In this document: piece after piece, positions 47,301 through 63,611 of the stretch
Layout: each line of letters opens with the position of its first letter
How positions within the stretch are numbered: the first letter of the stretch is position 1
Source of the DNA: an uncultured Pseudomonadota bacterium
GTDB taxonomy: Bacteria > Oederibacteriota > Muellerivitia > Muellerivitales > Muellerivitaceae
Assembly (NCBI GenBank): GCA_963836235.1
Contig: CAWIIP010000005.1
Span: 192,001 to 256,000 of the forward strand
Direction of reading: 5' to 3'
DNA length: 64,000 bases
Notes under the pieces: model-generated
The model's database searches: none
Seen by the model: the letters and a program-made list of their open reading frames with translations, nothing else
What the model was told of the DNA's origin: nothing
Position numbers and translations under genes: made by a program

Positions 47301-50300
47301 CCCCACTCGGTTATCGGATTCCCATTGCCGTCTAAAACCTGCACCCGGTTGTTTCCGCTGTCCGCCACGTAAACCGTGGTTCCGTTGGAATTGACGGCGA
47401 TCCCGATGGGATACTCGAACTGTCCTGGCCCGTAACCACCTCCGCCCCATTGGGTGATGGCATCGCCCGCCGTGTCGAAGACATAAACTTGATTGTTGTA
47501 ATTATCCGTCAGGTAAAGGTGGTTGTTCCCGTCCACGGCAAGGCCCATGGGGTTGATAAACTGGTTTTGGCCGCTTGGTCCCCACTGGGTGATGGGGTTT
47601 CCCTGAGGATCGAAAACATCCACCTGATCGGTATCGCCGTCCGCTGCATAGACGTTTCCTTGGCCATCAGTTGCCATCCCATTGATCGCCGAATCAGTTG
47701 ACGAGGAAGAAATCAGGTTGCAAAAGATTGGAATGGGCGACGGGCCAGGGGTGGGAGTTAAGGTCGGCGAAGGTGTAAAGGTTGTTGTCGGTGTGGGATA
47801 AGGGCTGGAGGAACAAGGTCCCAAACGTTCAATATTTTCATGGTCGTTCACTGCCGCGTAAAAGGTGCCATCCTGCGGCGCAGCCACGCCACCCGGTGAG
47901 ACAACACCACTGATCACGCCCACCTCGTTTCCTGATAAATCGCTTATCCCTAAACCACTGCCCTGAGTCGCCACACAAACACGATTCGCGGTACTATCCA
48001 CCGACAGGAAGACCGGATTGGGCAACCAGGAACTCGTGTTCCATTGGTTGAGGAAGTTCCCACTTCCGTCGAAAACCTCGATCAAGCTGGGATTAAAGCT
48101 TTCCACGTAAACCCGTCCTTGGTTGTCCAAGGCCAGGCCCGTTGCATAATCGAATGTCCCGTTTCCGTCATCCCCGGCTGTCCCCCATTGGGTCACCGGA
48201 ACTCCTTGGCCATTGAAAACCTCAACTCGGTTGTTTGCTTCATCCGCCACATAAACCGTTGTTCCGGCCGAATTCACCGCTATCCCCCAGGGAGCCTGGA
48301 ACTGACCTATCCCGTTTCCGCTTCCCCCCCATTGGGTGATGGGGTTGCCCGCAGTATCGAAAACATAAACCATATCGTCTTCATAATCGGTCATGTAAAG
48401 ATGGTCGTTACCATCGATCGCCAGTCCCATGGGGTAAATAAATGGGTTCTGGCCGTTGGAGGGTGGGCCCCACTGGGTGACGGCATTCCCGTGGGGGTCG
48501 AAAATATCCACTTGGTTGTTGTCAACGTCCGCCGCGTAGAGGTTGCCTTGGGTATCCAGCGCCAGCCCGTCGATAGACCCGTCCGTTGACGAGGAAGAGA
48601 CTACGTTGCAATAGATGGTACCCGGTACGGGTGACGGGGTGAGGGTTAAGGTCGGAGTTGGCGTGAGGAGGGGGGTCTGTGTTGGTGAAAGCGTGATAGT
48701 CGGCGTCGGTGTGGGATAGGGTATTGTGGAACAAGATCCCAAACGGTTTATAACCCCTTGATCATCGAGCGCCGCGTAAAAAGTGCCGTCCTGTGGCGCG
48801 GCAACGCCGCCGTAAGTTGGCGCTTGGGGGATGGAGCCACCGGTCCCACTGATCACGCCTACTTCGTTTCCTGACAAATCGCTTATCCCCAAGGTGTTAT
48901 TGATTGTCGTGATGTAAAGCTGACTCGTCGTATTGTCAACCGAAAGGAATAGTGGATTGGGCAGCCAAGAGCTTATGTTCCGCTGGTTTAGGAAATTACC
49001 ATTCCCGTCGAATACCTCGATCAAACTCGGAATATAGCTTTCAACGTAAACCCTGCCCTGATTATCTAGGGCCACTCCCGACGCCAAATCGAAAGTTCCG
49101 TTGCCGTTGTCTCCGGTTGTCCCCCATTGGGTTATCGGCTCCCCTTGACCGTTGAATGACGCAACCCTGTCGTTTATAAGATCCGCCACATAAACCGTGG
49201 TCCCAGCCGAATTGACCGCGATCCCAAAGGGGGCCTGGAACTGGCCTGTCCCGCTTCCGCTCCCGCCCCATTGGGTGATCGGGTGACCCGCCGTATCGAA
49301 AACATAAACCATGTCGCCCAAATAATCCGTCATGTAAAGATGGTTATTTCCGTCGATCGCCAGTCCCATGGGGTAAATAAACTGGTTCAGGCCATTGGAG
49401 GGTGGCCCCCATTGGGTAACGGCGTTTCCATGGGAATCGAAAACATCTACCTGGTCGGTATCCGCGTCGGCGGCATAGAGGTTTCCCTGGGTGTCGAGTG
49501 CCAGCCCGTTGATCGACCCATCCGTTGATGAGGAAGAAACCTCGTTACAATATATAGAGACGGCTGTTGAAAGAGGGGTGGGAGTCGGGGTGCTGGTGGG
49601 GGTTTCCGTCGGGACCAGGCTGTTCGTATACCATGTGTCGTTCAAATACTCGTTGCCATCCCAACCGGCGATGACCCAGAGCTTGTTGTTGAAGGCCACG
49701 CTGGAATGGTCGGATCGGGGGGAGAAGTTGGCCGAGCTGGTGGCCATGGTCCAGTTGGAACTGCTATTAAGGTACCAAACATCGTTGGCCTCGGTGCCGT
49801 CGTCCAGGGTCCCGCCGATGACGAACATGAAATTGTCCATTATCCCCGCCGAAGCGTCCTGCCTCCCTTGGGTGCCGAAGGTCGTGGGTCCGTACCAATG
49901 GTTGCCGTCCGTGTACCAAGCGTCATTCAAAAGGTCCCCTTCCGCCGGAACCCCTCCGGCCACCCAAAGCGAATTGTTATAAGGGGCGCCCGCCTGATAT
50001 GCCCTCAGGGGATAAGCCGTGCCAGAGTTGGAACTCGGAGTTTTGGAACTCCAATTCATCCCGTCGGAGGAAACCCAAATGTCGGATAAGACATTGTCGT
50101 TTTGGTCCAGGCCGCCGACCAGCCACAATTCAGGTCCGTTCCCCAGGTTCTGAACCATCAGGGAGCTTCCTGTCCGGGGGCTGAAGGGAGCCTGGGTGAC
50201 AGCCTCGGTCCAGTTCACGCCGTCCGGCGAGGACCAAACGTCGTTATTCAGGCTGTCGTTGAAATTCTGCCCGCCCACCACCCAAATCTTCCCGTTAAAG

Positions 50301-53300
50301 GCCGCCGCCCCAGGGTCGATGCGGGGGCTGAACCCGGTGGAAACCGTTTGTTGGGTCCAATTCGCCCCGTCGGTGGAGGACCAAGTGTCGTTGAAGAACT
50401 CGCTGTCGTTGCCTCCCCCAATGACCCACATCCGGTTATTAAAGGTAACACTGGCCTGGTCCGCCCTTTGTGGAAACCCGGCGTTCGCCGTGGCCTGTGT
50501 CCAATTGCCGTATGGCCCCACGGTCGGCGTGGGTGTTGGTGACTCATAAGGAGCCAAGGGTGAGTACCAGGAATTGCCGTTGTTGTTGCCGGAAAGGTCC
50601 GTCCCACCCACGATCCATAAAGCATTATTCCCTTGGGGACTGGACGATGGATTGAATACCAGTCCGGATAATCCCTGACGGGGGCTGAAATTCGCCGCCG
50701 CCGTCTCCTCGGTCCAATCGGTCCCATCGCCGGAACTCCAAACGTCGTTTTTGACGGCTCCGGAGGCTCCATGACCTCCCATGATCCACATCTGCCCATT
50801 CGCGACCGTCCCGGCGAAACCGGTGCGGTACTCAAATGGCAGGCTGGTTCCCGTGCTCCAGTGGACCCCGTCCGAAGTGGACCAAGCCATGCTTTGATAT
50901 CCATAAAAATTGGGGTTTGGAGTGACGTCAGTATTAGTAACAGGTATACCGCCGACCACCCATATTTGGCTGTTAAGGGCCATGGCCTGGAAACCCGAAG
51001 TAGTGGCAAAAGGCCCCCTCGGCTCTTCGTCCCAATTGATGCCGTTGGTGGAAGACCAGACGTCCGCCAACCCGTCTCCCCCCATCACCCACATCTGGCC
51101 GTTGAAGATCACGACCTGGTGGCCGCTTCGGGGCGGGAAAGAAGCGCTGGCCGTCACCTGGGTCCAGGAAACTCCATCCAATGAGTTCCACACGTCGTTG
51201 GTCACGCCCTGGCTCGTCTGCCCGCCAATCATCCAAAGCGCCCCGTTGAAGCTGACGGCGGCCTGGCCTGTCCTGGTCCCAAAAGGCGCCAAAACGGTAG
51301 AAAGATTCCAATTGATCCCATCCGGGGAATCCCAAATATCCGCTCCCCCGCCTCCGATTACCCAAATGGAACCATTGAAAGCCGTGGCCGTCTGGCCTTG
51401 CCGGTTAGGGAATGCGCGGCCAACCGGGGCCCCTTGGAGCCAGCCTTGGCCGGTTATGGAAACGACGGTAGGGGTAGGGGAAATAGTCGGGGTTGCCGTG
51501 GGGGTGGGGGTGGAAGTCACGGCGGGGGAAGGCGTAGGCGTGAAGCTATTGGTCGGTGAGTTCGTGATGGAACCGGTGAATGTCGGGCTGGGAGTAAAGG
51601 TCGAAGTGGGTGTCCCCGGGCCCGGTGTCCAGGTGGAGGCCGGCGTATAACCCAAAGCGGGCGCGGTCCAAACGTCGTTCAAGTCGTTTCCATTGGAGTC
51701 CTGCCCACCCACGGCCCACATTTGATTGTTGAAGGCCGCCGCCGAGAAGTTGGTTCGCGGTATATAAGCCGTAGTCACCGCCACCTGGTTCCAATGGATT
51801 CCGTCCTGGGTAAACCACTGGTCTTGTAGGGCGTTGTTTCCGTTGATACCGTTAGGAATAAATAAGGCTCCCCCGCCGAAACTCATGGGTTCGTAGTTGG
51901 AAGTGTAGCTGGTTGCTTCATAAGCATAAGGCAGGTTTCCGGAAACTTGAGACCAATGTACGCCATCCGAGGTTTTCCATACCGTCTCGTCGGTTATTGG
52001 AGTGGGTCCTCCACAATCCCAAAATCCCCCAAAAATCCAAATGTATCCATTGAAGGCCATAGTGTTATTGACGCCCAAAATCGGCACTTGGCTTTCCAAG
52101 GTCCAATTCATCCCATCCGGCGATGAGAAAAGGCGGCTCGCGTTTCCACAGCTTGAATCCATAACCCATAACTGGTTATTCAGGACATAGGCCCCTATGA
52201 CCTGGCTGAAAGGCGCCTGGGCATCCGCCAAGTTCCAATTCACCCCATTTGGCGAACTGAAAACCTGGTACTGGCCATTGTCCCAATCTATCGCGTTGAA
52301 GACCCACAAATTCCCATTAAATGTTGAAGTGACCAAGCCGGTTTGCTCGTCGAATGGCGTGTTATCGGTGGCCAGTCTCCAGTTCACCCCATCAGGGGAA
52401 TTCCAAACATCTCCCAAGGGGCCGATGTCGCTGTTGGTTCCCCCGGCCATCCAAAGAAGGTTTTGTCCCGCCCAAGAACCCGTCGAGGGCTGGAAGGCCG
52501 TTAAGCCGGGATTGGAACGGGGAATGAATGCGGTATCACCCACGGCCTGGGTCCATACCGCGTTGCCGTCGGGCGTCGGGGTTGAAGTGGGCGTAAAGGT
52601 GGGCACCTGGGCGAAATTGGAATACCAGGCGTCTCTTAGATCGTAACTATAATTATTTTCTGACTGCGACTCCGGCAAAAGGGGATCGCCGCCCGTTATC
52701 CAAATGTGGTTATTATCCGTTGCCGCCGCCCCATAGGCTCGGCCGGGAAAGGGGGCCGCGTAAGTCGAAGCCGTCCAATTGATACCATCCGAGGAATGAT
52801 AGACATCATTAAAGGAAATATAAGGTTGATGCTGTGAATAGACCGGATTGGGGGGGGGGTATCCTCCACCCAACACCACCATTTGGTTACTAATGGGATC
52901 AACCTGGGCCGTAAAACCCCACCGGGGTGGCCAAGAAGCGTTGGCCGTAGCCTCGGTCCAGTTCACACCATCGGGGGAACTCCAAACGTCATTCAGGGGT
53001 TCATTAAAAAAGTTGCTCCCACCCATCACCCAAAGCTGGCCGTTGTAGGCCAAGCATTGGTGGTAAAAACGGCCGGGGAAAGCGGCGGAAGCCGTCTGCT
53101 TGGTCCAATTCACCCCGTCCGGCGAACTCCAAACGTCATTGAGATCGTTATTGTCCAGGTCTTCCCCACCGATGACCCACATTTGGCCATTGAAAGCCGT
53201 TACGGTAAAAGCGGTCCGGTAACCCCATGGGGCTTGGGCCTTTGTTTCGGTCCAGTTGACGCCGTCCAAGGAACTCCAAACATCGCTCAAATAGGTCCAC

Positions 53301-56300
53301 CCCCCGTTATAGACAGCAACCGCGCCCATTACCCACATTTTCCCGCCGAAAACCACGGCCCCAAAATCCGCCCGAGGAGGAAAGGCCGCCGCAGTCACCG
53401 CTTCGCTCCAATGGATGCCATCCGAGGAGGACCAAACATCGTTAGCGGGGTTGCCACCATTTTCGTTTCCAAAGGGCTCCCCGCCGATGACCCAATAATG
53501 GTTGTTGAAATAAAGGGCTTGGTGGTGCGCCCTCTGCCCGAAACCTGCCGCGTCGGTGGCTTGAAGCCAGTTGCTATAGGCATCCCCATTGGGCGTAGCT
53601 GTGAAGGTAAAGGTGGCGAAGAAAGTGGGGGTCTCGGTCGGCGTTGGGGTCCAAGTGATGGTGGGGGTTGGGGTGGCATAAGGTGTCTGGCCGCAAGGAC
53701 CGAAATGCTGGATATTGCCTTGGCCATTCAACGCCAAGTAAAAGGTCCCGTCCTGTGGCGCGGCTATTCCACTGGTGTAACCAATGCCACCCATCACTCC
53801 TGCTTCATTGCCTGACAAGTCGCTTATCCCTAACTCCCCCAATGCAGAGTAGAGGTAAATCTTTCCCACCGTGTTATCCACTGAAAGAAGATCGGGATAG
53901 GGCGCCCAAGTGCTTGTGTTCCATTGGTTGAGGAACTTTCCCGTTCCGTTAAATACTTCGATCCAATCAGGAACCTCGCTCGTCACGTAAACTTGACCCT
54001 GGTTATCCAGGGCCACGCCCGTCGGGAAGTCAAAAGACCCCTGCCCATCGTCCCCTTCCGTTCCCCATTGAGTTATCGGGCTTCCCTGTCCGGTGAAAGC
54101 CTGAACCCGGTTAACTTCACTGTCCACCACATAGACCGTGGTTCCCGCCGCGTTGACCGCGATCCCGGTGGGGTCCTCGAACTGGCCCGTCCCGGTACCA
54201 TATACACCTCCCCATTGGGTGATGGGATTTCCGGCTGTGTCAAAAACAAAAACCATGTCCCGGTAATCATCGGTCATGTAAAGATGGTTGTTGCCGTCGA
54301 TGGCCAACTGATTAGGGGTATCAAAGTGGTTCACGCCGTTGGCGGGCGGCCCCCATTGGGTAACGGGATTGCCCTGGGCGTCGAAGACGTCCACTTCATC
54401 GTAGTCGGTGTCGCCGGCATAGAGGTTCCCTTGGCTGTCCACGGCCAATCCACTGATAGACCCATCCGTTCCAATGGAGGAAATGACGTTGCAATAGAGC
54501 GGACCCGGTGGAGTGGGCGTGAAGGTGGAGGTATAACCGTTCAAGTTGGTGCTGGTGGAAGTCGGTGAAATGGTCGGAGTGGAGGTGGGCGTATGGGTAA
54601 AGGTGAAAGTCGAGGTATAACCGTGCAGGTTCGTATTGGTAGGGGTAGGGGTGAAGGTAAAGGTTGCGGTCGGTGTGGGTAAAGGCGTGTTGGTGGGCAA
54701 TGGCGTGAAATTGGGCGGCAGGGGTATTTGCGCCACGCGGACGTTGGAGTAATCGTCCATGAAGGCCAGCGTCCCCCCCGGCCCTCCGCCGGGCGCGTAG
54801 GAAATCACCACCCCCATGAAGGGATCGTTCGGCCCCTCCTGGATGGAAAGCTGGCAAAGAAGATTGTTGTTGGTGTCATACCCATAAACCGTCAGACCGT
54901 CCGTGCCTAGCACATAAACGCGCCCGTCCCCAGTGGAAACCTGCATCTGGGGGCTGGCGCCGGAAGGCGTATCCGGGTTCACTTCCTGCGCCCAAGCGAC
55001 GGAAGGCTCTAGGAAAGAAAAGCATTTTGGAAGCAAGGCGAGATTTTCTCCTTCGCCCAAAGGCAAGGAGGCGGTTTGAATACCTTGGCCTAGTTGTTGT
55101 TGTAGTCCGTTACCGTAAAGGGTGACGTTCCAATATTTATCCCGGATGACGGAGCAACCGGGCGGCAAGAACCTACTGCTTAAAACGTCATTTGGAGATT
55201 GGGTAATAAGGGTATCGGAAACTTCCGTGTCCTCCACAAAAGTCATGTACAAAACATACAAATTACCTTGGCCGTCGAAAGCTATGTTTTTAACTTGATC
55301 ATTTGGGAGAGGAGAACAATTCGGACTACCGCCGACAATTGGACCATTGCTGTTGATCTCCGAATACCAGAGGGTGGGTTCGGTGGGTGTTGAGTAACAC
55401 GACGCCATGACAGCCGACAAACCGTTCGGAGAAATATCATATGAAATCGGCTCATAATTCTCAAAAAGACCTAAGTCCGTGTCGTTCAGCTTGAAGGTTT
55501 TTAGGTTGAATTGAACCATATACCCATGGTTAGGATCTGAATTGGTATTAAACCCGCAAGCGTAAATATCCCCTACTGGGTCCGTCTCGAAAAACTTAAA
55601 CGGCCCCCGAGCAATGGGAAAAATGGATAAAGCCGATAGGACATCCTTAAGCGTGGTCGGTGTTTGCGCCGGCGTCGGATTGGGCGTGGGGGTGAAGGTG
55701 GGCGTGGGAGTGGTAATAAAAAACGCGTTGGCGGTATCCGCCTCGGCCTCAAACCCAGCCCAGCCGTTTAAATCATAGCCCGTTTTCAATTGGTAGGCGA
55801 TGGTATGGGGGTCGCCATCCATTGGACGATTGTTTGCGTCCTTCGCCCCGCTGATGGAAAGCGTAACGCTATCCCCTGCTTCAGAAGTGGTAATTAAAGT
55901 CGAAGGGGCATCCGCACTATAAGTTTGCCCATCTAACCCCCAGCTTCCAACCGGAAATATCCAAGTGCTTACAGGCGTTGGCGTACTCTTAACATAAAAT
56001 AAAGCTTCCACCGTCGGCACCATCGTCGGATTCACATTCATGGGGTTATTGAAGTAGAAGTCAAAGTGCGTTCCCACCCCGAATAACGCCGGAACGTTGG
56101 TGTTCACCGTCGGCGCGTTGGCCAGAATGGTTACGGGATACGGAGTGGGAGTACCGATCATTTCCACTGTCGGTGAAGGTGGCGGGGCCAATGGCCATTG
56201 GGCCTGGTAGATCGGCGTGGCGTTTTGGCTGACGGTGACGCCTTGGACGTAGGCACGGGGAAAAGTGGACACTTGAAAAGCAAAATTCGTCACGGGTCCA

Positions 56301-57682
56301 GCTTCGTAACCATTCCAAACGCTAGGGCCTGTACTTAAGGACAAAGTAGCGGGAGTTGAAGCATCGGAATCTAAAGCCTCTGTGGAAGAAATTGAAGGAT
56401 TGGGAGTACCGGAAGGAAAGGGATTAATGGAAATGCTTACCCCTTGTCCAATGATGCTAACAGGGCAATTAGAGGAACCGCTCGGAACAATGAAGGTTCC
56501 CTCCCAAGTTGGGAAATTACCACTACTAAAATCATTCCAAACACCAGTAGCTGTGACAGCATTAGTTCCGGAACTCAAAAAGACCTGAAGATTTTCCCGA
56601 GTATCAATTGATTCATTCGCAGTCAGAAGGATGACCGCCGTCGTTCCGGCGATTAAACTATCATTTTGTTGTGTGGTTAGCTCCCTACTACTTGGCTCAT
56701 CACTAATATTCATCCCATCAATCGTAGTTACATTAAAAGGGGGTATGGAAGAAGTTGTGACATCATCCCACTGAGCTGAATATCTCAAATTAGCATCGGA
56801 GTCATTGTCCTGGTAGATATCAATCGCTCTGATGATAGGAGGGCTAACAGCGTAAAAATAATTTAAAATACCTTGGTAATCCCAACCTTTCTCTCGGGCT
56901 AAAGTCAATGCGCCTTGTTGAGAAAGGCCTTCGGCATTAAAAGCAGGGACATCCCTAGTTGCCCCAGTGTCATCTCGACGTTTAAGATATGGAGGAAAAT
57001 TCCAAAACCCAGGGAAAGCAGGGTAAAAAATTTCATCTTCGGAGTTATCTCCAAACGCATCAGAAAATTTTGCTAAAGTTAATTCAGTCACGCTGGTTGT
57101 TCGATTAAAAGCGAAAAGAGCCTGATGGGCAGTTTCAGAAACAGAATCCCCGGCCCCACTATCCCCCCCAACAACATCGGTGTCATAAGGTTTAAAGGCT
57201 TCTAAACTTAGGGGTTCGATAAATGTCGTTTGATTTTCATCCACTATGGTTAAGGGTTGGGTAGAATCCGTCACATCATAAGTCAGCCCGTCTAATTGTC
57301 GAAAAGCCCTTGATTGAACCGATGCGGTGAAACTTCTAGCTGCAACAGCTTGAGCTTTCAAGGCCTCTGGTGGCTGGTTGTCACCACCTATTTCAGAAAA
57401 AACAACTCCATCAATGAATTCATCATAAGGCATCGAAATAACTAAACTAACACCAGCATTATACGCAATAACCGTGACGCCATTAATTGCTTCAATCTGA
57501 TTTACAATATCTTGATTTAAATTTGATGTCTCACCCAAAAAAACCGTAACAGCTCCCGGCAATTGAGTAATAGGACCGCTTTGGGCTTTACAAAAGGAAA
57601 TATCCACGACATTTATTAAAAGAAAAGTGGATATCAATAGAACTACTTTTAAATTTTTACTCTTTGATCCATTTGTAAACAT
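44318..57682 (-). CDS. Giant (4454 aa) secreted multidomain protein: SpoIID/LytB-like, NHL and Asp-box/Kelch-like propellers, Thr-rich stalk, CBM3-like, FlgD/T9SS-like CTD
   Basis: Signal peptide; GVVFSEIGG..PEALKAQAVAARS and GLSQQGA..GWDYQGILNYFY; 5 NHL modules; 4 NDVWSSxDGxNW modules; TPTxTPT linkers; VVNNGAAVTLSDLTIKFW; ends WNLQNNGSQPVASGLYLF..KIAIIR. Confidence 0.88.
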   Translation of the reverse strand: MFTNGSKSKNLKVVLLISTFLLINVVDISFCKAQSGPITQLPGAVTVFLGETSNLNQDIVNQIEAINGVTVIAYNAGVSLVISMPYDEFIDGVVFSEIGGDNQPPEALKAQAVAARSFTASVQSRAFRQLDGLTYDVTDSTQPLTIVDENQTTFIEPLSLEAFKPYDTDVVGGDSGAGDSVSETAHQALFAFNRTTSVTELTLAKFSDAFGDNSEDEIFYPAFPGFWNFPPYLKRRDDTGATRDVPAFNAEGLSQQGALTLAREKGWDYQGILNYFYAVSPPIIRAIDIYQDNDSDANLRYSAQWDDVTTSSIPPFNVTTIDGMNISDEPSSRELTTQQNDSLIAGTTAVILLTANESIDTRENLQVFLSSGTNAVTATGVWNDFSSGNFPTWEGTFIVPSGSSNCPVSIIGQGVSISINPFPSGTPNPSISSTEALDSDASTPATLSLSTGPSVWNGYEAGPVTNFAFQVSTFPRAYVQGVTVSQNATPIYQAQWPLAPPPSPTVEMIGTPTPYPVTILANAPTVNTNVPALFGVGTHFDFYFNNPMNVNPTMVPTVEALFYVKSTPTPVSTWIFPVGSWGLDGQTYSADAPSTLITTSEAGDSVTLSISGAKDANNRPMDGDPHTIAYQLKTGYDLNGWAGFEAEADTANAFFITTPTPTFTPTPNPTPAQTPTTLKDVLSALSIFPIARGPFKFFETDPVGDIYACGFNTNSDPNHGYMVQFNLKTFKLNDTDLGLFENYEPISYDISPNGLSAVMASCYSTPTEPTLWYSEINSNGPIVGGSPNCSPLPNDQVKNIAFDGQGNLYVLYMTFVEDTEVSDTLITQSPNDVLSSRFLPPGCSVIRDKYWNVTLYGNGLQQQLGQGIQTASLPLGEGENLALLPKCFSFLEPSVAWAQEVNPDTPSGASPQMQVSTGDGRVYVLGTDGLTVYGYDTNNNLLCQLSIQEGPNDPFMGVVISYAPGGGPGGTLAFMDDYSNVRVAQIPLPPNFTPLPTNTPLPTPTATFTFTPTPTNTNLHGYTSTFTFTHTPTSTPTISPTSTSTNLNGYTSTFTPTPPGPLYCNVISSIGTDGSISGLAVDSQGNLYAGDTDYDEVDVFDAQGNPVTQWGPPANGVNHFDTPNQLAIDGNNHLYMTDDYRDMVFVFDTAGNPITQWGGVYGTGTGQFEDPTGIAVNAAGTTVYVVDSEVNRVQAFTGQGSPITQWGTEGDDGQGSFDFPTGVALDNQGQVYVTSEVPDWIEVFNGTGKFLNQWNTSTWAPYPDLLSVDNTVGKIYLYSALGELGISDLSGNEAGVMGGIGYTSGIAAPQDGTFYLALNGQGNIQHFGPCGQTPYATPTPTITWTPTPTETPTFFATFTFTATPNGDAYSNWLQATDAAGFGQRAHHQALYFNNHYWVIGGEPFGNENGGNPANDVWSSSDGIHWSEAVTAAAFPPRADFGAVVFGGKMWVMGAVAVYNGGWTYLSDVWSSLDGVNWTETKAQAPWGYRTAFTVTAFNGQMWVIGGEDLDNNDLNDVWSSPDGVNWTKQTASAAFPGRFYHQCLAYNGQLWVMGGSNFFNEPLNDVWSSPDGVNWTEATANASWPPRWGFTAQVDPISNQMVVLGGGYPPPNPVYSQHQPYISFNDVYHSSDGINWTASTYAAPFPGRAYGAAATDNNHIWITGGDPLLPESQSENNYSYDLRDAWYSNFAQVPTFTPTSTPTPDGNAVWTQAVGDTAFIPRSNPGLTAFQPSTGSWAGQNLLWMAGGTNSDIGPLGDVWNSPDGVNWRLATDNTPFDEQTGLVTSTFNGNLWVFNAIDWDNGQYQVFSSPNGVNWNLADAQAPFSQVIGAYVLNNQLWVMDSSCGNASRLFSSPDGMNWTLESQVPILGVNNTMAFNGYIWIFGGFWDCGGPTPITDETVWKTSDGVHWSQVSGNLPYAYEATSYTSNYEPMSFGGGALFIPNGINGNNALQDQWFTQDGIHWNQVAVTTAYIPRTNFSAAAFNNQMWAVGGQDSNGNDLNDVWTAPALGYTPASTWTPGPGTPTSTFTPSPTFTGSITNSPTNSFTPTPSPAVTSTPTPTATPTISPTPTVVSITGQGWLQGAPVGRAFPNRQGQTATAFNGSIWVIGGGGADIWDSPDGINWNLSTVLAPFGTRTGQAAVSFNGALWMIGGQTSQGVTNDVWNSLDGVSWTQVTASASFPPRSGHQVVIFNGQMWVMGGDGLADVWSSTNGINWDEEPRGPFATTSGFQAMALNSQIWVVGGIPVTNTDVTPNPNFYGYQSMAWSTSDGVHWSTGTSLPFEYRTGFAGTVANGQMWIMGGHGASGAVKNDVWSSGDGTDWTEETAAANFSPRQGLSGLVFNPSSSPQGNNALWIVGGTDLSGNNNGNSWYSPLAPYESPTPTPTVGPYGNWTQATANAGFPQRADQASVTFNNRMWVIGGGNDSEFFNDTWSSTDGANWTQQTVSTGFSPRIDPGAAAFNGKIWVVGGQNFNDSLNNDVWSSPDGVNWTEAVTQAPFSPRTGSSLMVQNLGNGPELWLVGGLDQNDNVLSDIWVSSDGMNWSSKTPSSNSGTAYPLRAYQAGAPYNNSLWVAGGVPAEGDLLNDAWYTDGNHWYGPTTFGTQGRQDASAGIMDNFMFVIGGTLDDGTEANDVWYLNSSSNWTMATSSANFSPRSDHSSVAFNNKLWVIAGWDGNEYLNDTWYTNSLVPTETPTSTPTPTPLSTAVSIYCNEVSSSSTDGSINGLALDTQGNLYAADADTDQVDVFDSHGNAVTQWGPPSNGLNQFIYPMGLAIDGNNHLYMTDYLGDMVYVFDTAGHPITQWGGSGSGTGQFQAPFGIAVNSAGTTVYVADLINDRVASFNGQGEPITQWGTTGDNGNGTFDLASGVALDNQGRVYVESYIPSLIEVFDGNGNFLNQRNISSWLPNPLFLSVDNTTSQLYITTINNTLGISDLSGNEVGVISGTGGSIPQAPTYGGVAAPQDGTFYAALDDQGVINRLGSCSTIPYPTPTPTITLSPTQTPLLTPTPTLTLTPSPVPGTIYCNVVSSSSTDGSIDGLALDTQGNLYAADVDNNQVDIFDPHGNAVTQWGPPSNGQNPFIYPMGLAIDGNDHLYMTDYEDDMVYVFDTAGNPITQWGGSGNGIGQFQAPWGIAVNSAGTTVYVADEANNRVEVFNGQGVPVTQWGTAGDDGNGTFDYATGLALDNQGRVYVESFNPSLIEVFDGSGNFLNQWNTSSWLPNPVFLSVDSTANRVCVATQGSGLGISDLSGNEVGVISGVVSPGGVAAPQDGTFYAAVNDHENIERLGPCSSSPYPTPTTTFTPSPTLTPTPGPSPIPIFCNLISSSSTDSAINGMATDGQGNVYAADGDTDQVDVFDPQGNPITQWGPSGQNQFINPMGLAVDGNNHLYLTDNYNNQVYVFDTAGDAITQWGGGGYGPGQFEYPIGIAVNSNGTTVYVADSGNNRVQVLDGNGNPITEWGTYGDAGGGTFDYMTGLTLDNQGRIYVASYNPNWIEVFDGSGNFLDQWNTGSWAPNPVMLAVDSTANQVYIEAQNVLGISDLSGNEVGVVSGIVSPGGVAAPQDGTLWVGANNLGVIERLGPCSQTPYPTPTPTLTPILIPTLTPLPPPVSIYCNVVSSSSTDGSIDGLALDTQGNLYAADVDNNQVDIFDPHGNAVTQWGPPSNGQNPFIYPMGLAIDGNDHLYMTDYEDDMVYVFDTAGNPITQWGGSGNGIGQFQAPWGIAVNSAGTTVYVADEANNRVEVFNGQGVPVTQWGTAGDDGNGTFDYATGLALDNQGRVYVESFNPSLIEVFDGSGNFLNQWNTSSWLPNPVFLSVDSTANRVCVATQGSGLGISDLSGNEVGVISGVASPGGVAAPQDGTFYAAADDLNNIERLGSCGQAPYPTPTPTYTLTLTGTYTFTPSLTATFTPTNTGTETPTQTPTNTTTFTGTNTPTNTATNSATYTTTNTATNTLTNTATYTTTNTPTNTTTDTPTSTTTKTSTNTATYTTTKTTTNTPTKTTTSTPTNTTTNTSTNTATSTGTNTPTNTATSTPTKTVIYTPTNNATNTTTKTTTNTATNSPTASPTLSPTNTRTSTASLTPSQTPTRTETKTATKTPTPANSPTKTSTFTVTGTSTKTATLTNTATKTFTVTKTYTPTITPTPSPTTACGTNTSALALLEEYTSSCGSNSVYHLFAVVNNGAAVTLSDLTIKFWPYDTSGVSLVGSISTGGCIWNPTCSHNVTGTTISALNFSPACGPSTTQMANWEMTVSTTDNTVLSGGTSWVGLQTLVNRSDNQPFVPGTSYWYSPCVMASTYSTNSHYAIYLKGNLVTASGGIPPSCRPLATCTPSGGQGAIVADLARMNGNPTLTPTPIPPLLASVVAAPNITNGQQPIRLLTYLTSQAKVSLAIFTVSGEQVYGTETEGSAGLNTIVWNLQNNGSQPVASGLYLFVLRVHNGASQETKVGKIAIIR
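46259..48613. repeat. Near-identical ~590-bp internal duplication (46259-46846 and 48026-48613)
   Basis: Offset 1767 bp; the ORF track gives identical 181-aa antisense ORFs at 46277 and 48044. Confidence 0.9.
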
Positions 57683-59228: not shown

Positions 59229-59312
59229 GCCATCAGTCCTGATCGAATGATCTAGATAATCTTAACAGTTCCCTCTTCGCGGGTCCCCGTCGTGGACAGG
59301 TGTTTTCGTTAA

Positions 59313-59597
59313 TTAATGAGCGGCCAGATGGTGGCGTTTCTTTTTAGCTAGATAGTGCTGGTCCAAGCCTTGGCGAAGGATCGATTTGATAACTGCTTGG
59401 CGGCTTACATTCATTTCGCGGACCAACCCATCCAATTCCTTAAGCATGTTTTCCGCGAAATCCACATTAACTCGGCGGATGGCCGGCATCATTTTTCCGT
59501 GGTTCGTAAAATGTTTGGAGATGTTCTCCCCTTTGTCAGCCATTTGAGCTAATTGTTCAGCCGTTGGAATTGTTTTTGCCTTATGAACGGTTTTCAT
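59313..59597 (-). CDS. BrnA/CopG-like RHH antitoxin
   Basis: ADKGENISKHF..RRVNVDFAENMLKELD..NVSRQAVIK; overlaps the BrnT-like toxin. Confidence 0.8.
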   Translation of the reverse strand: MKTVHKAKTIPTAEQLAQMADKGENISKHFTNHGKMMPAIRRVNVDFAENMLKELDGLVREMNVSRQAVIKSILRQGLDQHYLAKKKRHHLAAH

Positions 59598-59859
59598 ACA
59601 ATTTCCTTTCTTCCTTAGTGGATTTCCAAAGAGTGACTAAGTGAATGTACTCTCCATCCCGATCCGATCTCTCTTCATAGATCACCGTATATAGCCTATC
59701 CCCCACCCAGCCGATGGCCCGCCATTGCTCCGGCACCTCGGATCGTTGATCCAAGTAGTAAGGGCTTTCCCAGAGCACTTGAACTTCTTCAAAACCGATT
59801 CCCCGTAGGCGGTTTCGACGAAGGGCTTCGCTCTTGTGTTTGTCGAATTTAACCCGCAT
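59581..59859 (-). CDS. BrnT-family (DUF497) toxin
   Basis: FDKHKSE..RGIGFEE..EQWRAIG..TVIYEER..IHLVTLWKSTKEERKLYE. Confidence 0.85.
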   Translation of the reverse strand: MRVKFDKHKSEALRRNRLRGIGFEEVQVLWESPYYLDQRSEVPEQWRAIGWVGDRLYTVIYEERSDRDGEYIHLVTLWKSTKEERKLYENRS

Positions 59860-59868
59860 CCACGCTCC

Positions 59869-59885
59869 GGTATAACAGTTATACC
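59869..59885. promoter_or_regulatory. Putative autoregulatory operator of the BrnT/BrnA cassette
   Basis: Perfect palindrome GGTATAAC-A-GTTATACC 10 bp upstream of the toxin start. Confidence 0.6.
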
Positions 59886-59975
59886 ATCAATTTCTTATTA
59901 CTTCAAGAAGGCATCCCACGCGAATTTAGGTGTCCACGAAGGGTCCCCGTCGTGGACAAGAACTAACCCATTATT

Positions 59976-60320
59976 TTATTCGAATAAGAGAATTTTAAGG
60001 TTTTCGATCAACTTCACTTTATCAATCGGGCTTAACTCCCCCAAGTGCTTGACGAACCGGCGGTTATCAATGGCCCGGATCTGGTCAACCAAGATATCGG
60101 AGTCCTTCTTTAGGTTGTTTCCTTTTTTGGGAAGGTGAACCCGGAGTATCTCCGCTCCATGAATGACGTTGGTGGTAATGGGACAGACGATGGTACTGGG
60201 ATGCAATCCATCATTTAAAAGGTTGGTTTGAAGGACGACGACGGGCCTAGTTTTTCCAGGCTCGGTGCCGAAGCGCGGACTTAGATCGGCCAGGTAAATA
60301 CTAAATTTCCTGATTTTCAT
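59976..60320 (-). CDS. PemK/MazF-family endoribonuclease toxin
   Basis: IYLADLSPRFGTEPGKTRPVVVLQ, VCPITT, DQIRAIDNRR. Confidence 0.92.
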   Translation of the reverse strand: MKIRKFSIYLADLSPRFGTEPGKTRPVVVLQTNLLNDGLHPSTIVCPITTNVIHGAEILRVHLPKKGNNLKKDSDILVDQIRAIDNRRFVKHLGELSPIDKVKLIENLKILLFE

Positions 60321-60556
60321 TCAATGGTTGCTTCTTCAAGCTTTTCCATCTCACTCAAGATGTCCATGGAGTTATTTCGCGTAAGCAGGGATTCTTTTTG
60401 CAGTTTTTTACGAAGACCTTTGCGCCTGTTGAACGCGTTGTAAAAATCCAACGCCTCGTTGATGTAAGTATTTCGCGGCATGTGGAGCCGCTTAGTCTGA
60501 GCTTCAACATCCTCAAAGATTTCGCTTTTGATTTTAAGGGACAGGACTTTAGTCAT
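60317..60556 (-). CDS. RHH antitoxin cognate to the MazF-like toxin
   Basis: VLSLKI..IFEDVE..PRNTYINEAL; ATGA overlap with the toxin. Confidence 0.8.
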   Translation of the reverse strand: MTKVLSLKIKSEIFEDVEAQTKRLHMPRNTYINEALDFYNAFNRRKGLRKKLQKESLLTRNNSMDILSEMEKLEEATIE

Positions 60557-60573
60557 TTTGAACTCCTTTTAAG

Positions 60574-60594
60574 GTATATACGAATAGTATATAC
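60574..60594. promoter_or_regulatory. Putative operator of the MazF cassette
   Basis: GTATATAC-gaata-GTATATAC upstream of the antitoxin. Confidence 0.55.
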
Positions 60595-60667
60595 TTTTCG
60601 GTTTAAAAAGGAACAAATTTTCTAATTTAGTTGTCCACTCCGGGTCCCCGCCGTGGACAAAGCCACC

Positions 60668-61258
60668 CTATGGCTGGTTCTTCAAAGGCCCGGCGGCCTT
60701 GTAAGCATTCATCAGGATGCCCGTGGGGAAAGAACGGGTGCTTATAAGTTCGAACGAGCGCGGTGGGGTCCCCTCCGCGAAAATGCGCTTTCCCTTTCCC
60801 AGAAGGACCGGATCGACGAGCAGTAGCAGCTCATCCGCGAGGCCGTGCTCCAGCAGGGGTGATATCAGCGATATGCTACCGCAAAGGACCAAGTTAGGGC
60901 CCTCCTGCGACTTGACACGGCGAACGCCCTCGATCATGTCCGGCCCGATGGCCTCGGAAGGGCCCCACTCCAGGCCTTCCGGCCGGTGGGTCACGACGTA
61001 TTTCTTCGCGCCGTTGATCGCGTCCGCCATCGGACTGCTCGGCATCTTCGGCCAGAAGCTTGAAAAGTAATCGTAGGTGCGCCGGCCCAACAGCAGGTCG
61101 AATTTCCCACCATAGGCCGCGAGCACCGCGTCTCGGCCCTCAGGGGTACGGTAGGGCCCCGACCAGTCGCCGTAGGGGAAATCCTTGTCGTCGCCCGGGG
61201 CGCCAACCTGGATCACGCCGTCCAACGAAATATGATTGGCGATCTTCAGTTTTCTCAT
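60668..61258 (-). CDS. Dihydrofolate reductase / RibD C-terminal family protein
   Basis: ISLDGVIQ, LLLGRRTY, KYVVT, GSISL, DELLLLVDPVLLGKGKRIF. Confidence 0.9.
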   Translation of the reverse strand: MRKLKIANHISLDGVIQVGAPGDDKDFPYGDWSGPYRTPEGRDAVLAAYGGKFDLLLGRRTYDYFSSFWPKMPSSPMADAINGAKKYVVTHRPEGLEWGPSEAIGPDMIEGVRRVKSQEGPNLVLCGSISLISPLLEHGLADELLLLVDPVLLGKGKRIFAEGTPPRSFELISTRSFPTGILMNAYKAAGPLKNQP

Positions 61259-61411
61259 TTTGTGTCCTCCTTCACAGGCTCTTGTCGTTCACACGGGTTA
61301 CCATCGTGCGTAAATAAAGGGGCCAGGGTTTTCCCTAACCTCCGATTTGGTTGTCCACGATGGGTCCCTGTCGTGGACAACTAATTTATAGGTTTTTCAA
61401 AAAGACGGTAA

Positions 61412-61453
61412 AACAAAAGAACCCGACTTATCCCCAAGTCGGGTTCTTTTGTT
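61412..61453. terminator. Intrinsic terminator (bidirectional-type)
   Basis: AACAAAAGAACCCGACTT-atcccc-AAGTCGGGTTCTTTTGTT downstream of the PEGA gene. Confidence 0.8.
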
Positions 61454-61519
61454 ACGGACAAAATGGAAAGTGTCTAACCCTGTTTGTTCTTCTTAAGGTT
61501 CGACTCTTTGTTATCAAAA

Positions 61520-61879
61520 CTATTTTTTGTCCAGCAAAACTTTGAGATTTCCTTTATCAAGATCATTCCAATTTGACGTTGCAGCATCAACCACTAAAGG
61601 AACTAATCCAAAGAGATCAAGAATCAATAAACCTGGCACTAATTGAGATTGAATTATTGCAGTTTTTTCTTCATACCCTTCTTTTTTAAAAGTTAAATTT
61701 GCAGAATGCTTTTTTTCCATCTCGACATTTATTGGGGTTTTACCGACACGATTACCATCTACATAGACATCGGCACCTTGAGGATCAGAATCCAACATTA
61801 CGGGTTTTAGATTTCTATTAAATAGGGTGCCGCACCCGGTCGTTGCAATTAACAAAACAATGCTTATCAAATAACGCAT
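61520..61879 (-). CDS. PEGA-domain lipoprotein
   Basis: Lipobox TTGC; SDPQGADVYVDGNRVGKTP..KKEGYE; VVDAAT. Confidence 0.85.
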   Translation of the reverse strand: MRYLISIVLLIATTGCGTLFNRNLKPVMLDSDPQGADVYVDGNRVGKTPINVEMEKKHSANLTFKKEGYEEKTAIIQSQLVPGLLILDLFGLVPLVVDAATSNWNDLDKGNLKVLLDKK

Positions 61880-61908
61880 TTAATTACCCCCTCAATTTGG
61901 ATTCTAAA

Positions 61909-63611
61909 CCCGGATTTCCCAGATGGAATTTCCTTTCGAGTATAATAAGACAACGTTTGGCCATATAAACAAAGGTTTTTCTTCGTGTTGGGGAACATGA
62001 GAGGGGGAAATGCAATGGGTGAAGGCGGAAAAGACGCTCTTCGGGTGGTTTTTGACCCTGGCCTCAAGTTGGAGTTCCATGGTGCGAAGGTCACTTCCGA
62101 TGGCGGGTTGATTCCCTATCGCGAACTCGACGAAGCTTTTGGTTTGACTGACAGAACAGAAAACATCCTTTGGGATCGGCGGACCGGTAAGAATACGCAA
62201 CACACGATTACGGCGCTTCTTCGCCAGTCGGTATTCAGCCGCTTGGCCGGTTATGAGGATACCAACGACGCAGAACGCCTGAGTGTCGATCCTGCGATGC
62301 GGCATGTGATCGGAGGACGGGCCAGGGAAAAACAGGCCGCCTCCACCAGCCAGATGGGTCGTTTCGAGACGGAGGTCCTCACCCAGTCGAAGAATTTGAC
62401 CGGCTTAATTGACTTATCGGGCCAATGGATCGATGGAGTCCATGAGAAAAAGCCCATACAACAGATCATCCTCGACATGGATAGCTCAGTGAGCGAGACC
62501 TACGGGGATCAGGAAGGTTCCTTGTACAACGGTTACTTTGGCTGTACCTGTTACCATCCCCTGTTTTGCTTCAACCAGTTCGGCGATTTGGAACGGGCTA
62601 TGTTGCGCAACGGCAATGTGGCCAGTGCCCACGAATGGCGTTCGGTTCTTGAACCGGTAGTTGCCCGCTACCGGGGTCTTTCCATCAGCCGGTTTTTCCG
62701 GGGTGACGCGGCTTTCGCCCGTCAGGAACTATACGAATACCTAGAAGACGAAGGATATCTTTACGCGATCCGCCAACCTGCCAATGCCATACTCCAACGG
62801 GAAATCGAGCCATTTTTAACCCGTCCCGTGGGCCGCCCCTCCCACAAGCCGGTTGTCCGGTTTCACAGCTTCCAATACCAAGCCGTCAGCTGGGACAAAC
62901 CCCGCCGCGTGGTGGCGAAGATCGAACATCACAACGGGGAATTGTTCCCAAAGGTGGGTTTCATCGTAACGAACATGCGACGACCGGCACCCCAGGTGGT
63001 GAAATTCTACAACGGAAGAGGCACGGCTGAGCAGTGGATCAAAGAGGGAAAGTATGCGATGAAGTGGACAAGACTAAGCTGCCACGACTTCGCGGACAAC
63101 CAAGTGCGCTTACAACTATTCGCCCTGGCCTACAATCTGGGCAACTTCCTGCGCCGACTGGCACTGCCAGAACTGGTGAAACATTGGTCGCTAACGACCT
63201 TGAGGGAAAAACTCATCAAGATCGGGGCTAATGTCATCCGTCATTCGCGGTACGTTATTTTCCAGATGGCGGAGGTGATGGTTTCCCGACGCCTGTTTGC
63301 TGAAATCCTCAATCGGATACGGCTACTGGCAATGGTAAGGCCGCGAGCGCCAGTACTGCGATAACCGCAGGAAGGCATCAAGGCTTCAACCCGAGCGACT
63401 ACCGCAGGATAGGTGTGCGCTCACAACGAGAATTGGCTTTCCAGAAGGTCAATTTCAGCTTTTTTGGGCACAGAAACCTTTTCCTGGGGCTTATTTCAGT
63501 GGCCCAGGACGGAAAATTCCGGATTCGGATGGAAGAAGCGGGGGGGGGCGATATAATGAGAAACAAATTACCCGGCAATGTTTTCAGAGAAGGTCATCTG
63601 GGAAATTCCGG
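61909..63611 (+). mobile_element. IS1380-family insertion sequence
   Basis: 17-bp IRs CCCGGATTTCCCAGATG (61909-25) and CATCTGGGAAATTCCGG (63595-611); flanks CTAAA/CTAGA form an imperfect 5-bp TSD. Confidence 0.88.
62015..63364 (+). CDS. IS1380-family DDE transposase
   Basis: TSDGGL, GYEDTNDA, ILDMDSS, YHPL, RGDAAF, FYNGRGTAEQWIKEGK, LAYNL. Confidence 0.95.
   Translation: MGEGGKDALRVVFDPGLKLEFHGAKVTSDGGLIPYRELDEAFGLTDRTENILWDRRTGKNTQHTITALLRQSVFSRLAGYEDTNDAERLSVDPAMRHVIGGRAREKQAASTSQMGRFETEVLTQSKNLTGLIDLSGQWIDGVHEKKPIQQIILDMDSSVSETYGDQEGSLYNGYFGCTCYHPLFCFNQFGDLERAMLRNGNVASAHEWRSVLEPVVARYRGLSISRFFRGDAAFARQELYEYLEDEGYLYAIRQPANAILQREIEPFLTRPVGRPSHKPVVRFHSFQYQAVSWDKPRRVVAKIEHHNGELFPKVGFIVTNMRRPAPQVVKFYNGRGTAEQWIKEGKYAMKWTRLSCHDFADNQVRLQLFALAYNLGNFLRRLALPELVKHWSLTTLREKLIKIGANVIRHSRYVIFQMAEVMVSRRLFAEILNRIRLLAMVRPRAPVLR

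Follow-up and report, generated by a model that had tools for sequence, protein, structure and literature searches.

How did a BrnT/BrnA-like gene pair, a MazF pair and a RibD_C gene come to lie in one and the same orientation between copies of a 28-bp palindrome, and which enzyme could move them? The question is raised by positions 59271-61379 of a stretch of 64,000 nucleotides (in the following the window) from an uncultured bacterium of the Muellerivitaceae, which corresponds to G000:C5:192001-256000, G000 being a 3.97-Mb assembly in five contigs. We think that this segment is probably an orphan array of three cassettes, belonging to a lineage-specific cassette system that is served by a serine recombinase. 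Each cassette would consist of one gene or one toxin-antitoxin (TA) pair and would be bounded by a 28-bp recombination site, in which an asymmetric central TC separates two inverted half-sites of 13 bp.

Three full palindromes (TGTCCACGAnGGGTCCCCGTCGTGGACA) are found on the plus strand of the window (Table 1). They show no mismatch to the pattern, for which 100 shuffles gave an expectation of 0.00 matches. An earlier note on this DNA, made from the sequence alone, had counted four palindromes. Three of these are full 28-bp copies, while the fourth is a half-site, consisting only of the core and the right arm (GGGTCCCCGTCGTGGACA, 59281-59298); at the place of its left arm there is unrelated sequence, which agrees with the consensus at 2 of 10 positions. 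The positions given there for the central TC (59284, 59944, 60645 and 61365) are correct, and the three co-oriented modules are indeed all located on the minus strand, encoding a BrnT/BrnA-like pair, MazF with a partner, and a RibD_C protein. The sites had been placed 7-17 bp beyond the stop codons, and the measured gaps of 14, 17 and 8 bp lie in this range. Read in gene orientation, the order is PEGA gene and hairpin, site 4, RibD_C, site 3, MazEF, site 2, BrnTA and half-site, and beyond the half-site follows a convergent gene of 116 aa. Because no recombinase is encoded nearby and one end of the array is a hybrid, we read the array as an orphan.

The window array is one of many in this genome. 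Searching G000 with the core and the right arm (up to three substitutions allowed, followed by filtering) yielded 78 sites, 69 of which belong to 13 arrays of 2-14 sites each, the other nine being singletons. The same number, 69, have a neighbour at less than 4 kb, whereas random placement, tried 2000 times, gave 11.2 such sites on average and never more than 30. Within each array the orientation is almost uniform, the sites thus being direct repeats. The conserved block comprises 28-30 bp and reads (T)TGTCCA, four variable inner-left positions, GGGTCCCC and GTCGTGGACA(A), whereby the conservation of the right half is inflated because this half served as search key. At the central TC hardly any variation is seen, T being present in 72 and C in 73 of the 78 sites. 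More than about 2 nt outside the palindrome no conserved positions are found, and the distant R''/R' boxes of integron sites are absent, as the earlier note had stated. A single strand of the site folds as one plain, GC-rich hairpin. Sixty-seven of 78 open reading frames (ORFs; at least 45 aa, located between sites) are directed against the '+' orientation of the sites (47.6 versus 4.1 kb; p 6e-11). The 51 intervals of uniform polarity have a median length of 780 bp, and 35 of them contain a single ORF of at least 45 aa; the median gaps are 16.5 bp from stop codon to site and 47.5 bp from site to start codon. Seen in the direction of the genes, each stop codon is followed by the invariant arm, and the variable arm comes before the next gene. 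The cargo is diverse: 98 Pfam families are represented in 77 ORFs, among them HAD hydrolases, PIN, GNAT, AraC, NHL, SUKH-3 and a sigma-54 activator, so that the former idea of a platform stacking TA and stress cassettes in particular was too narrow.

Outside G000 the strict pattern (at most one mismatch) was found in 18 of the 24 further family genomes and in the only genome of the sister family, and in none of 15 genomes from other families of the phylum. For the exact half-site the numbers are 25 of 30 family genomes, again the one sister genome, and 0 of 67 genomes from 21 other families; a reversed control pattern was found nowhere. Over at least 13 genera the 28 bp are nearly invariant, and the number of site copies per genome ranges from 0 to 66-69. 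Scanning prokaryotes with one genome per species returned at least 103 stretches; among the matches listed, most titles name candidate division FCPU426, and the other titles read proteobacterium or Proteobacteria, Firestonebacteria, 'uncultured bacterium' and 'bacterium'. The motif is confined to one family and one sister genome of candidate division FCPU426.

GC-rich hairpins close to stop codons, in many copies per genome, are also the hallmark of repetitive extragenic palindromes (REPs) and of the bacterial interspersed mosaic elements (BIMEs) with their REP-associated tyrosine transposases (RAYTs). The palindrome might accordingly be a structural or protein-binding repeat of gene ends, with a role in RNA stability, termination or nucleoid binding and without a dedicated recombinase, and any shuffling could be due to homologous recombination between 28-bp repeats. 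Housekeeping-like genes between some sites and the many site-bearing genomes without a linked recombinase fit this explanation, and known REPs are targeted by IS110-family elements, as are the sites described here. Nevertheless we regard it as quite unlikely. The motif does occur genome-wide, but a scatter unrelated to cassette boundaries, which the earlier note had named as an argument against cassettes, is not seen, 69 of the 78 copies standing at gene boundaries in arrays of uniform polarity; the sequence is conserved across genera and absent from the 67 genomes of other families; there are reciprocal hybrid sites whose arms are swapped exactly around the core (see below); and no RAYT is flanked by the motif, the RAYT-like genes of G000 being flanked by another one. 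An intrinsic terminator was also considered and rejected, since the sequence behind the hairpin, in gene orientation, is A-rich and not T-rich and the hairpin is therefore not canonical.

Cassettes shuffle as units within and between genomes. Inside G000, C2:1195380-1196596 equals C4:57557-58773 (100% over 1276 bp); the identity stops at the outer edges of the sites and the neighbours differ. The BrnTA cassette of the window has a 90.9% match over 679 bp at C2:1196625-1197257, which extends from one site's core through the whole of the following site. When the cassettes were searched in five other genomes of the family (G023, G021, G001, G018 and G005), MazEF was present, as a unit of its own running from site to site, in four (G023 90%, G021 85% and 82%, G001 83%, G018 79%) and BrnTA in all five (G023 86%, G021 81%, G005 79%, G001 78%, and two partial copies in G018), the two cassettes never being adjacent there. 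For the flanks of the window array and for the RibD_C cassette there is no match in these five genomes, even within the genus. A fixed gene order among relatives, the second observation that had been expected to contradict a cassette system, is thus not what the comparison shows: the same cassettes lie elsewhere and the homology stops at the sites.

Four soil metagenome runs, used as assembled contigs only, which show presence and junctions, point in the same direction. A contig of run X1 is identical to 61362-61900 and is joined at 61361|61362, the boundary between arm and core, to 78 letters of other sequence, at the end of which stand a start codon and a variant left arm; on this contig the first cassette beside the chromosomal flank of the window array is therefore another one. 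As a separate unit with other neighbours the RibD_C cassette was found on contigs of X1, X2 and X4; in X1 it (60642-61351, 3 differences) has a different left neighbour. Contigs of X1 and X2 show in addition a loose end which resembles the 3' end of a group II intron and starts at the edge of site 4 (61351). The sole joint listed (61102 to 61208, side 21) is too weak to use.

Which recombinase is linked to the sites? Two genes of G000 encode a Resolvase domain. One codes for a large serine recombinase of 515 aa and lies at a great distance from the sites. The second (G000:C2:163827-164663) codes for a short serine recombinase of 278 aa, and only 34 nt separate its end from the first site of an array. 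It is the only intact short recombinase gene of G000 and lies on contig C2 and not on the contig of the window, in agreement with the earlier suggestion of a recombinase located outside the window. The protein is composed of a Resolvase (13-159) and a Recombinase domain (187-271); the zinc ribbon (PF13408) and coiled coil by which large serine recombinases are recognised are missing. It shares 49% identity with residues 1-272 of the 515-aa protein, among NCBIfam families it matches best CcrB, CcrA and XisF, in each case over their first ~270 residues, and in a sequence search of solved structures only catalytic domains were matched. Nineteen protein clusters with 74-100% identity are all 275-283 aa long and devoid of PF13408, while the next matches (at most 61%) are mostly longer, many of them with the zinc-ribbon family. 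The ratio of nonsynonymous to synonymous substitution rates (dN/dS) is 0.10 and 0.09 for two pairs, dS being saturated in a third. The short recombinase is under purifying selection, and its constant length within the clusters together with the low dN/dS indicates that it is not a random truncation.

Intact copies of the gene are present in five of 31 family genomes (G000, G001, G022, G072 and G075), and in all five a site starts 3-37 nt past the stop codon; in G001 this site is split by a group II intron. Among metagenome copies, four out of six that could be evaluated have a site 12-39 nt past the stop codon and one further contig ends inside a site, some of these contigs and the genomes possibly having the same source organisms. 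Among 20 long relatives there was no copy with a site. The gene also occurs in decayed form: 3' fragments were found at three further places in G072 and in G018, and a remnant of ~70 nt at G000 C1:399376, each of them with a site behind it. The restriction of the intact gene to site-rich genomes (five of 13 genomes with at least 12 sites versus none of 18 others; Fisher p 0.008, with a post hoc threshold and kin genomes) gives weak additional support. The linked recombinase that the earlier note had asked for is accordingly a short serine recombinase, and IS110 is absent from G000.

The site next to the recombinase gene, which we call the platform site, has a left arm of its own: TGTTCCTTTT in one clade and YGTCCCCTnn in the clade of G000. 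The TGTTCCTTTT arm always comes after the same gene end and a 14-nt spacer, and is then followed by seven different downstream sequences. Sites of G000 with an exact core comprise 49 standard sites, nine without left arm, one platform-standard hybrid and one standard-platform hybrid. In the loci outside G000 there are 278 standard sites, 13 platform-standard hybrids, 3-4 standard-platform hybrids and 1-2 whole platform palindromes. All four types predicted for an exchange between two sites, i.e. standard, platform and both hybrids, are therefore present, and with palindromes, an asymmetric central dinucleotide and parental as well as hybrid types the sites have the make-up of att sites.

Most informative is the comparison of the metagenome contig L205 with G000. 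In L205 a whole palindrome, TGTCCCCTCAGGGTCCCCCTAGGGGACA, stands 12 nt past the recombinase gene (274 aa, 89% identical), and a convergent helix-turn-helix (HTH) gene lies ~170 bp beyond the palindrome; this arrangement represents an empty platform. In G000 the homologous recombinase and HTH genes (68% nucleotide identity) are 4.3 kb apart, and the interval contains a hybrid with platform left arm and standard right arm (C2:164698), a cassette, a standard site, a second cassette, the reciprocal hybrid with standard left and platform right arm (C2:168009, TGTCCATGACGGGTCCCCCAAGGGGACA) and ~960 bp more. The arms are swapped and the 8-bp core is intact. This is the trace that would be expected if cassette circles had entered, or left, the platform site, and the empty site which the earlier note had recommended to look for thus corresponds to two hybrid sites flanking two cassettes in G000. 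In G075 the first cassette past the platform site is the BrnTA cassette of the window (83.5% over 683 bp); it starts at the site directly after the short recombinase gene, a position equivalent to the half-site of the window. The HTH gene as a component of the platform was rejected, as it is present only in G000 and L205.

Further observations concern the same kinds of sites. In G000 a standard-left/platform-right hybrid at C1:370995 and a platform-left/standard-right hybrid at C1:399376 bracket 28.4 kb in direct orientation; the segment (C1:370995-399403) holds an array of six sites and resembles the two ends of an integrated element. The left flanks of the half-sites C2:427130, C2:1231169 and C2:1943049 end alike in GTCGAAT, a conserved stretch of 43 bp is common to the left of C2:427130 and C2:1231169, and C2:427130 has an extra 23 nt between left arm and core. 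A second core variant, GCCTCCCC, recurs at G000:C4:145088, C4:146642 and C1:236010, in L144 (G005) and in L053, and in G005 it stands on both sides of the BrnTA cassette.

Several findings weigh against the short recombinase as the enzyme of the system, or against the cassette system as such. Seven of the 13 site-rich family genomes have no match to the short recombinase and one further genome has only a fragment. In four of five site-rich genomes tested (G021, G023, G005 and G010) no Resolvase domain was found at all; these four genomes are 89-99% complete and have 19-29 exact half-sites each, with the sites well conserved. Only one of the 13 arrays of G000 adjoins the intact gene and one more the remnant, and no recombinase is encoded in the 64 kb of the window that hold the focal array. 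In one metagenome copy (L207) the site is 113 nt away from the gene and its core has the opposite polarity. The cassette genes converge on the recombinase gene, so that an integron-style promoter logic is lacking. We know of no tested precedent for an enzyme of the large serine type working without the zinc ribbon. Among the assembled contigs of the four metagenome runs neither a circular cassette nor an excision joint was found, much of the stretch being uncovered in each run. Finally, an HflX-like GTPase (GTP-bdg_N, GTP-bdg_M, MMR_HSR1) is located in the site-bounded interval G000:C4:855146-856465, which shows that not all 'cassettes' look accessory and that some appear housekeeping-like.

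The recombinase-plus-arm unit could also be a mobile passenger itself, targeting the sites. The sites would then be real and their enzyme another protein, and the short recombinase with its arm would be a passenger or mobile module, in analogy to group II introns and IS110-family elements, which target the sites likewise. Such targeting by other mobile elements is evident. Two group II introns of G000, 99.85% identical to each other, are inserted in cassette sites in sense with the cassette genes (G000:C2:1476543-1478501 and C1:223030-224988; L015, L021); they encode a reverse transcriptase/maturase of 436 aa and match Rfam RF02005 and RF00029. Loci of relatives contain group II reverse transcriptases in seven cases and IS110-family transposases in eight, and the largest array of G000 is broken by an IS66 element. 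A passenger would also agree with the fact that nucleotide homology between the recombinase loci is confined to the gene itself. On the other hand, L205 and G000 keep the synteny of recombinase and HTH genes with the cassettes inserted between them, which is not the picture of an element entering an array, and no other recombinase is linked to the sites, neither IntI nor the 367-aa integrases, Xer, Y1 transposases or IS110. We therefore regard another enzyme as unlikely, though as the most serious of the alternatives considered.

The candidates just mentioned were examined individually. Six paralogous tyrosine integrases of ~367 aa, 57-70% identical to each other (C2:508543, C5:272301, C4:244739, C2:1373842, C2:1185612 and C4:195984), were dismissed as ordinary island integrases, since in four out of six loci they lie beside a tRNA gene; one of these paralogues is 88-90% identical across six other genomes. 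Three RAYT-like Y1 (HUH) transposase genes encoding proteins of ~315 aa with a long C-terminal extension past Y1_Tnp (G000:C2:2047689-2048630, C5:263448-264407 and C2:1841972-1842925) are more than 10 kb away from any site and flanked by a short motif of their own containing GGGGTCAG, and were rejected too. A Y1 homologue inside a cassette array was seen in L042. IS110 was rejected, as there is none in G000 and in relatives, where it occurs in or near arrays, it looks like a parasite of the sites. Proteins of 591-784 aa resembling ParB_N are encoded beside several arrays, but other paralogues are far from sites and they are thus not array-specific.

The properties of the arrays invite a comparison with integrons and with clusters of attC sites lacking an integron integrase (CALINs). 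Common to both are a recombinase gene with an adjacent primary site, orphan arrays without recombinase, and short cassettes with few promoters, mostly of a single ORF, which point in one direction and each have a site behind the ORF. A diverse cargo rich in TA and acetyltransferase genes (GNAT) and the targeting by group II introns and IS110-family elements complete the likeness. One could therefore suppose a true integron remnant, a CALIN with atypical attC sites. There is, however, hardly any room for this explanation. Integron integrases (TIGR02249, cut-off 265 bits) were found neither in G000 (best 40.9 bits) nor in 40 relatives (best 92.5 bits). According to the definition given in PMC9024848, attC sites have R and L boxes, an unpaired central spacer and a variable sequence with a conserved fold, whereas here only a block of 28-30 bp is conserved which forms a plain hairpin. 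While integrons use the tyrosine recombinase IntI on structured, sequence-variable sites, the enzyme linked here is a serine recombinase and the site a conserved 28-bp palindrome of the double-strand type, and while integron cassettes are read from a promoter beside the recombinase, the cassettes described here face its gene. The absence of IntI from all 41 genomes and the serine recombinase adjoining the sites in every intact family copy are in line with the gene-capture platform of a non-integron kind that the earlier note had proposed.

A further possibility is that the sites are dif-like and used by the Xer recombinase of the host, as a chromosomal analogue of the pdif modules of Acinetobacter. 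The 28 bp can be read as 11-6-11, and the motif-bearing lineage (f1 plus f2) has a single divergent Xer-like protein and not a XerC/XerD-like pair. This protein of 353 aa is a single-copy ortholog in 23 of 24 family genomes and in the one sister genome (56-79% identity), while the other families give two distant Xer hits each; family and sister family seem to have replaced the XerC/XerD-like pair of the other families with one recombinase. This explanation is largely refuted and very improbable. The terminus of the chromosome is located at ~C1:326.5 kb, where the gene orientation switches, and the xer-like gene at C1:328834-329895. Directly upstream of the gene lies a single-copy 11-6-11 palindrome (C1:329898-329925), whose AT-rich arms are unrelated to the cassette site, and in G004, G012 and G016 the xer ortholog has the same palindrome at a distance of 1-20 bp, a match in G018 being on a different contig. 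It is likely the chromosomal dif. The Xer/dif interpretation of the cassette sites was rejected because the host has its own dif adjoining xer at the terminus and because the sites are direct and not alternating. The lone site of the low-copy genome G025, which was sought as a dif-like site, shows the usual cassette geometry.

The pdif modules as such are nevertheless instructive. According to their published descriptions they are discrete modules including TA pairs of the brnTA type, with 28-bp sites, and they are shuffled between replicons. Their sites are described as resembling the host dif and are attributed to XerCD, while here the host dif is unrelated. They are reported from Acinetobacter plasmids and, in one 2026 paper, from the chromosome, the arrays of the present study being chromosomal. 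The flanking sites of pdif modules are inversely oriented, a feature absent here, where the sites inside arrays are uniform direct repeats.

The closest analogue among serine recombinases is the staphylococcal cassette chromosome (SCC) with CcrA and CcrB. Its elements insert at a specific site by means of a serine recombinase, accrete in tandem between direct repeats, and in some cases need the recombinase in trans. Site-specific cassettes and tandem accretion are thus common to both systems, and the short enzyme resembles the first ~270 residues of CcrB and CcrA. SCC units are, however, tens of kilobases long and occupy one chromosomal site, as opposed to the median of 780 bp and the 13 arrays in one genome found here, and the Ccr enzymes are full-length proteins with zinc ribbon and coiled coil, while the present enzyme ends after the recombinase domain. 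With the large serine integrases of phages and integrative and conjugative elements (ICEs), which convert attP and attB into attL and attR, the system shares the four site types and the location of the recombinase gene beside its own site. The known enzymes act on sites of 40-50 bp and possess zinc ribbon and coiled coil for the binding of the outer site and for the selectivity of attP for attB; here the sites have 28 bp, the enzyme lacks these parts, and the partners would mostly be standard by standard. Imperfect palindromes with an asymmetric central dinucleotide setting the polarity are a further common feature, the dinucleotide alone being responsible for the polarity in the large serine integrases as treated in PMC3783163. 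The same source assigns to the recombinase domain the reading of the inner half-site, with contacts at positions 9-11, to the zinc ribbon the reading of the outer part near position 20, and to the coiled coil the choice of the partner (PMC3783163). A half-site of 13 bp fits a protein that has the recombinase domain for the inner site and no zinc ribbon for the outer one, and by analogy an enzyme without coiled coil may not be selective for its partner.

On these grounds we propose the following mechanism for the cassette system, in which the enzyme would likely be the short serine recombinase of ~278 aa encoded on G000:C2. A dimer would bind to each site, cut both strands with a 2-nt stagger at the TC and exchange the strands by a 180-degree rotation of subunits, as known for related enzymes; catalysis and the crossover at the TC are inferred from this analogy. 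With a cut at the asymmetric TC the two sites could be joined in a single relative orientation only, so that every insertion would have the same polarity, which explains the uniform polarity of the arrays. Cassette circles carrying one standard site would recombine with the platform or with any site of an array, giving rise to hybrid sites, and recombination between direct repeats would in turn excise a circle carrying one site. The window array would be open to the action of the C2 copy in trans.

The features of the window array are listed in Table 1. MazF and the adjacent small protein agree with a type II TA cassette by family match and gene arrangement. The partner of 79 aa has no family match in Pfam or NCBIfam and is presumed to be the antitoxin from its position only. 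The BrnT-like protein remains with 30.7 bits under the curated cut-off of the Pfam family (34.5), as does the BrnA-like protein with 46 bits under that of the NCBIfam family BrnA (60); despite these scores the two genes are paired and overlap. In the upstream flank the hairpin followed by a T-run suggests a terminator of the PEGA gene.

Table 1. Sites and genes of the cassette array and its upstream flank, numbered from the first letter of the window.
Feature	Position	Strand	Remarks
Terminal hybrid half-site	59271..59298	+	Core GGGTCCCC and invariant right arm GTCGTGGACA; downstream end of the array in gene orientation
BrnA-like ribbon-helix-helix antitoxin, 94 aa, second gene of cassette 3	59313..59597	-	Pfam RHH_1 24.4 bits (cut-off 20.5)
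BrnT-like toxin, 92 aa, first gene of cassette 3	59581..59859	-	Pfam BrnT_toxin E 4e-07
Full 28-bp site between MazEF and BrnTA cassettes	59931..59958	+	
MazF/PemK-family toxin, 114 aa, cassette 2	59976..60320	-	Pfam PemK_toxin E 3.4e-24, 85.6 bits, over cut-off
Partner of mazF, 79 aa, presumed antitoxin	60317..60556	-	4-bp overlap with mazF start
Full 28-bp site between RibD_C and MazEF cassettes	60632..60659	+	Inner left arm variant (ACTCC)
RibD_C (dihydrofolate-reductase-like) protein, 196 aa, cassette 1	60668..61258	-	Pfam RibD_C E 6e-11, 43 bits, over cut-off
Full 28-bp site, upstream end of the array	61352..61379	+	Core variant GGGTCCCT
Terminator-like hairpin, putatively of the PEGA-lipoprotein gene	61412..61453	-	Non-cassette flank; 18-nt arms, 100% complementary
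PEGA-lipoprotein gene, upstream flank of the array	61520-61879		Pfam PEGA

Just past the array a DDE_Tnp_1_4 transposase gene was noticed (window 61985-63364, plus strand, 459 aa, 441.5 bits); an ORF of the same protein cluster lies near another array (C1:372133-373512). On the other side, an ORF of 4454 aa (window 44318-57682, minus strand) is predicted from its translation to contain many repeated propeller-like units and long Thr/Pro-rich linkers, and its C-terminal tail resembles a secretion sorting domain.

Integrons are the only well-understood platform for the capture of single genes, and they rely on one lineage of tyrosine recombinases and on folded single-strand sites. In the literature we found no description of a system like the present one, although surveys which name such repeats only in supplements could have been missed. 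The chances appear about even to us that these arrays represent a second, independently evolved gene capture of the integron type, with a minimal serine recombinase, 28-bp double-strand sites, a platform site of its own and a spread of cassettes throughout the family. In large serine integrases it is the coiled coil that makes the reaction one-way; the short enzyme, having none, may by nature work in both directions on very short sites. If this is true, the cassette architecture would have evolved more than once, a very small recombinase acting on a very short site would become available, and the sites would provide a handle on gene flow in an uncultured phylum of peat and soil.

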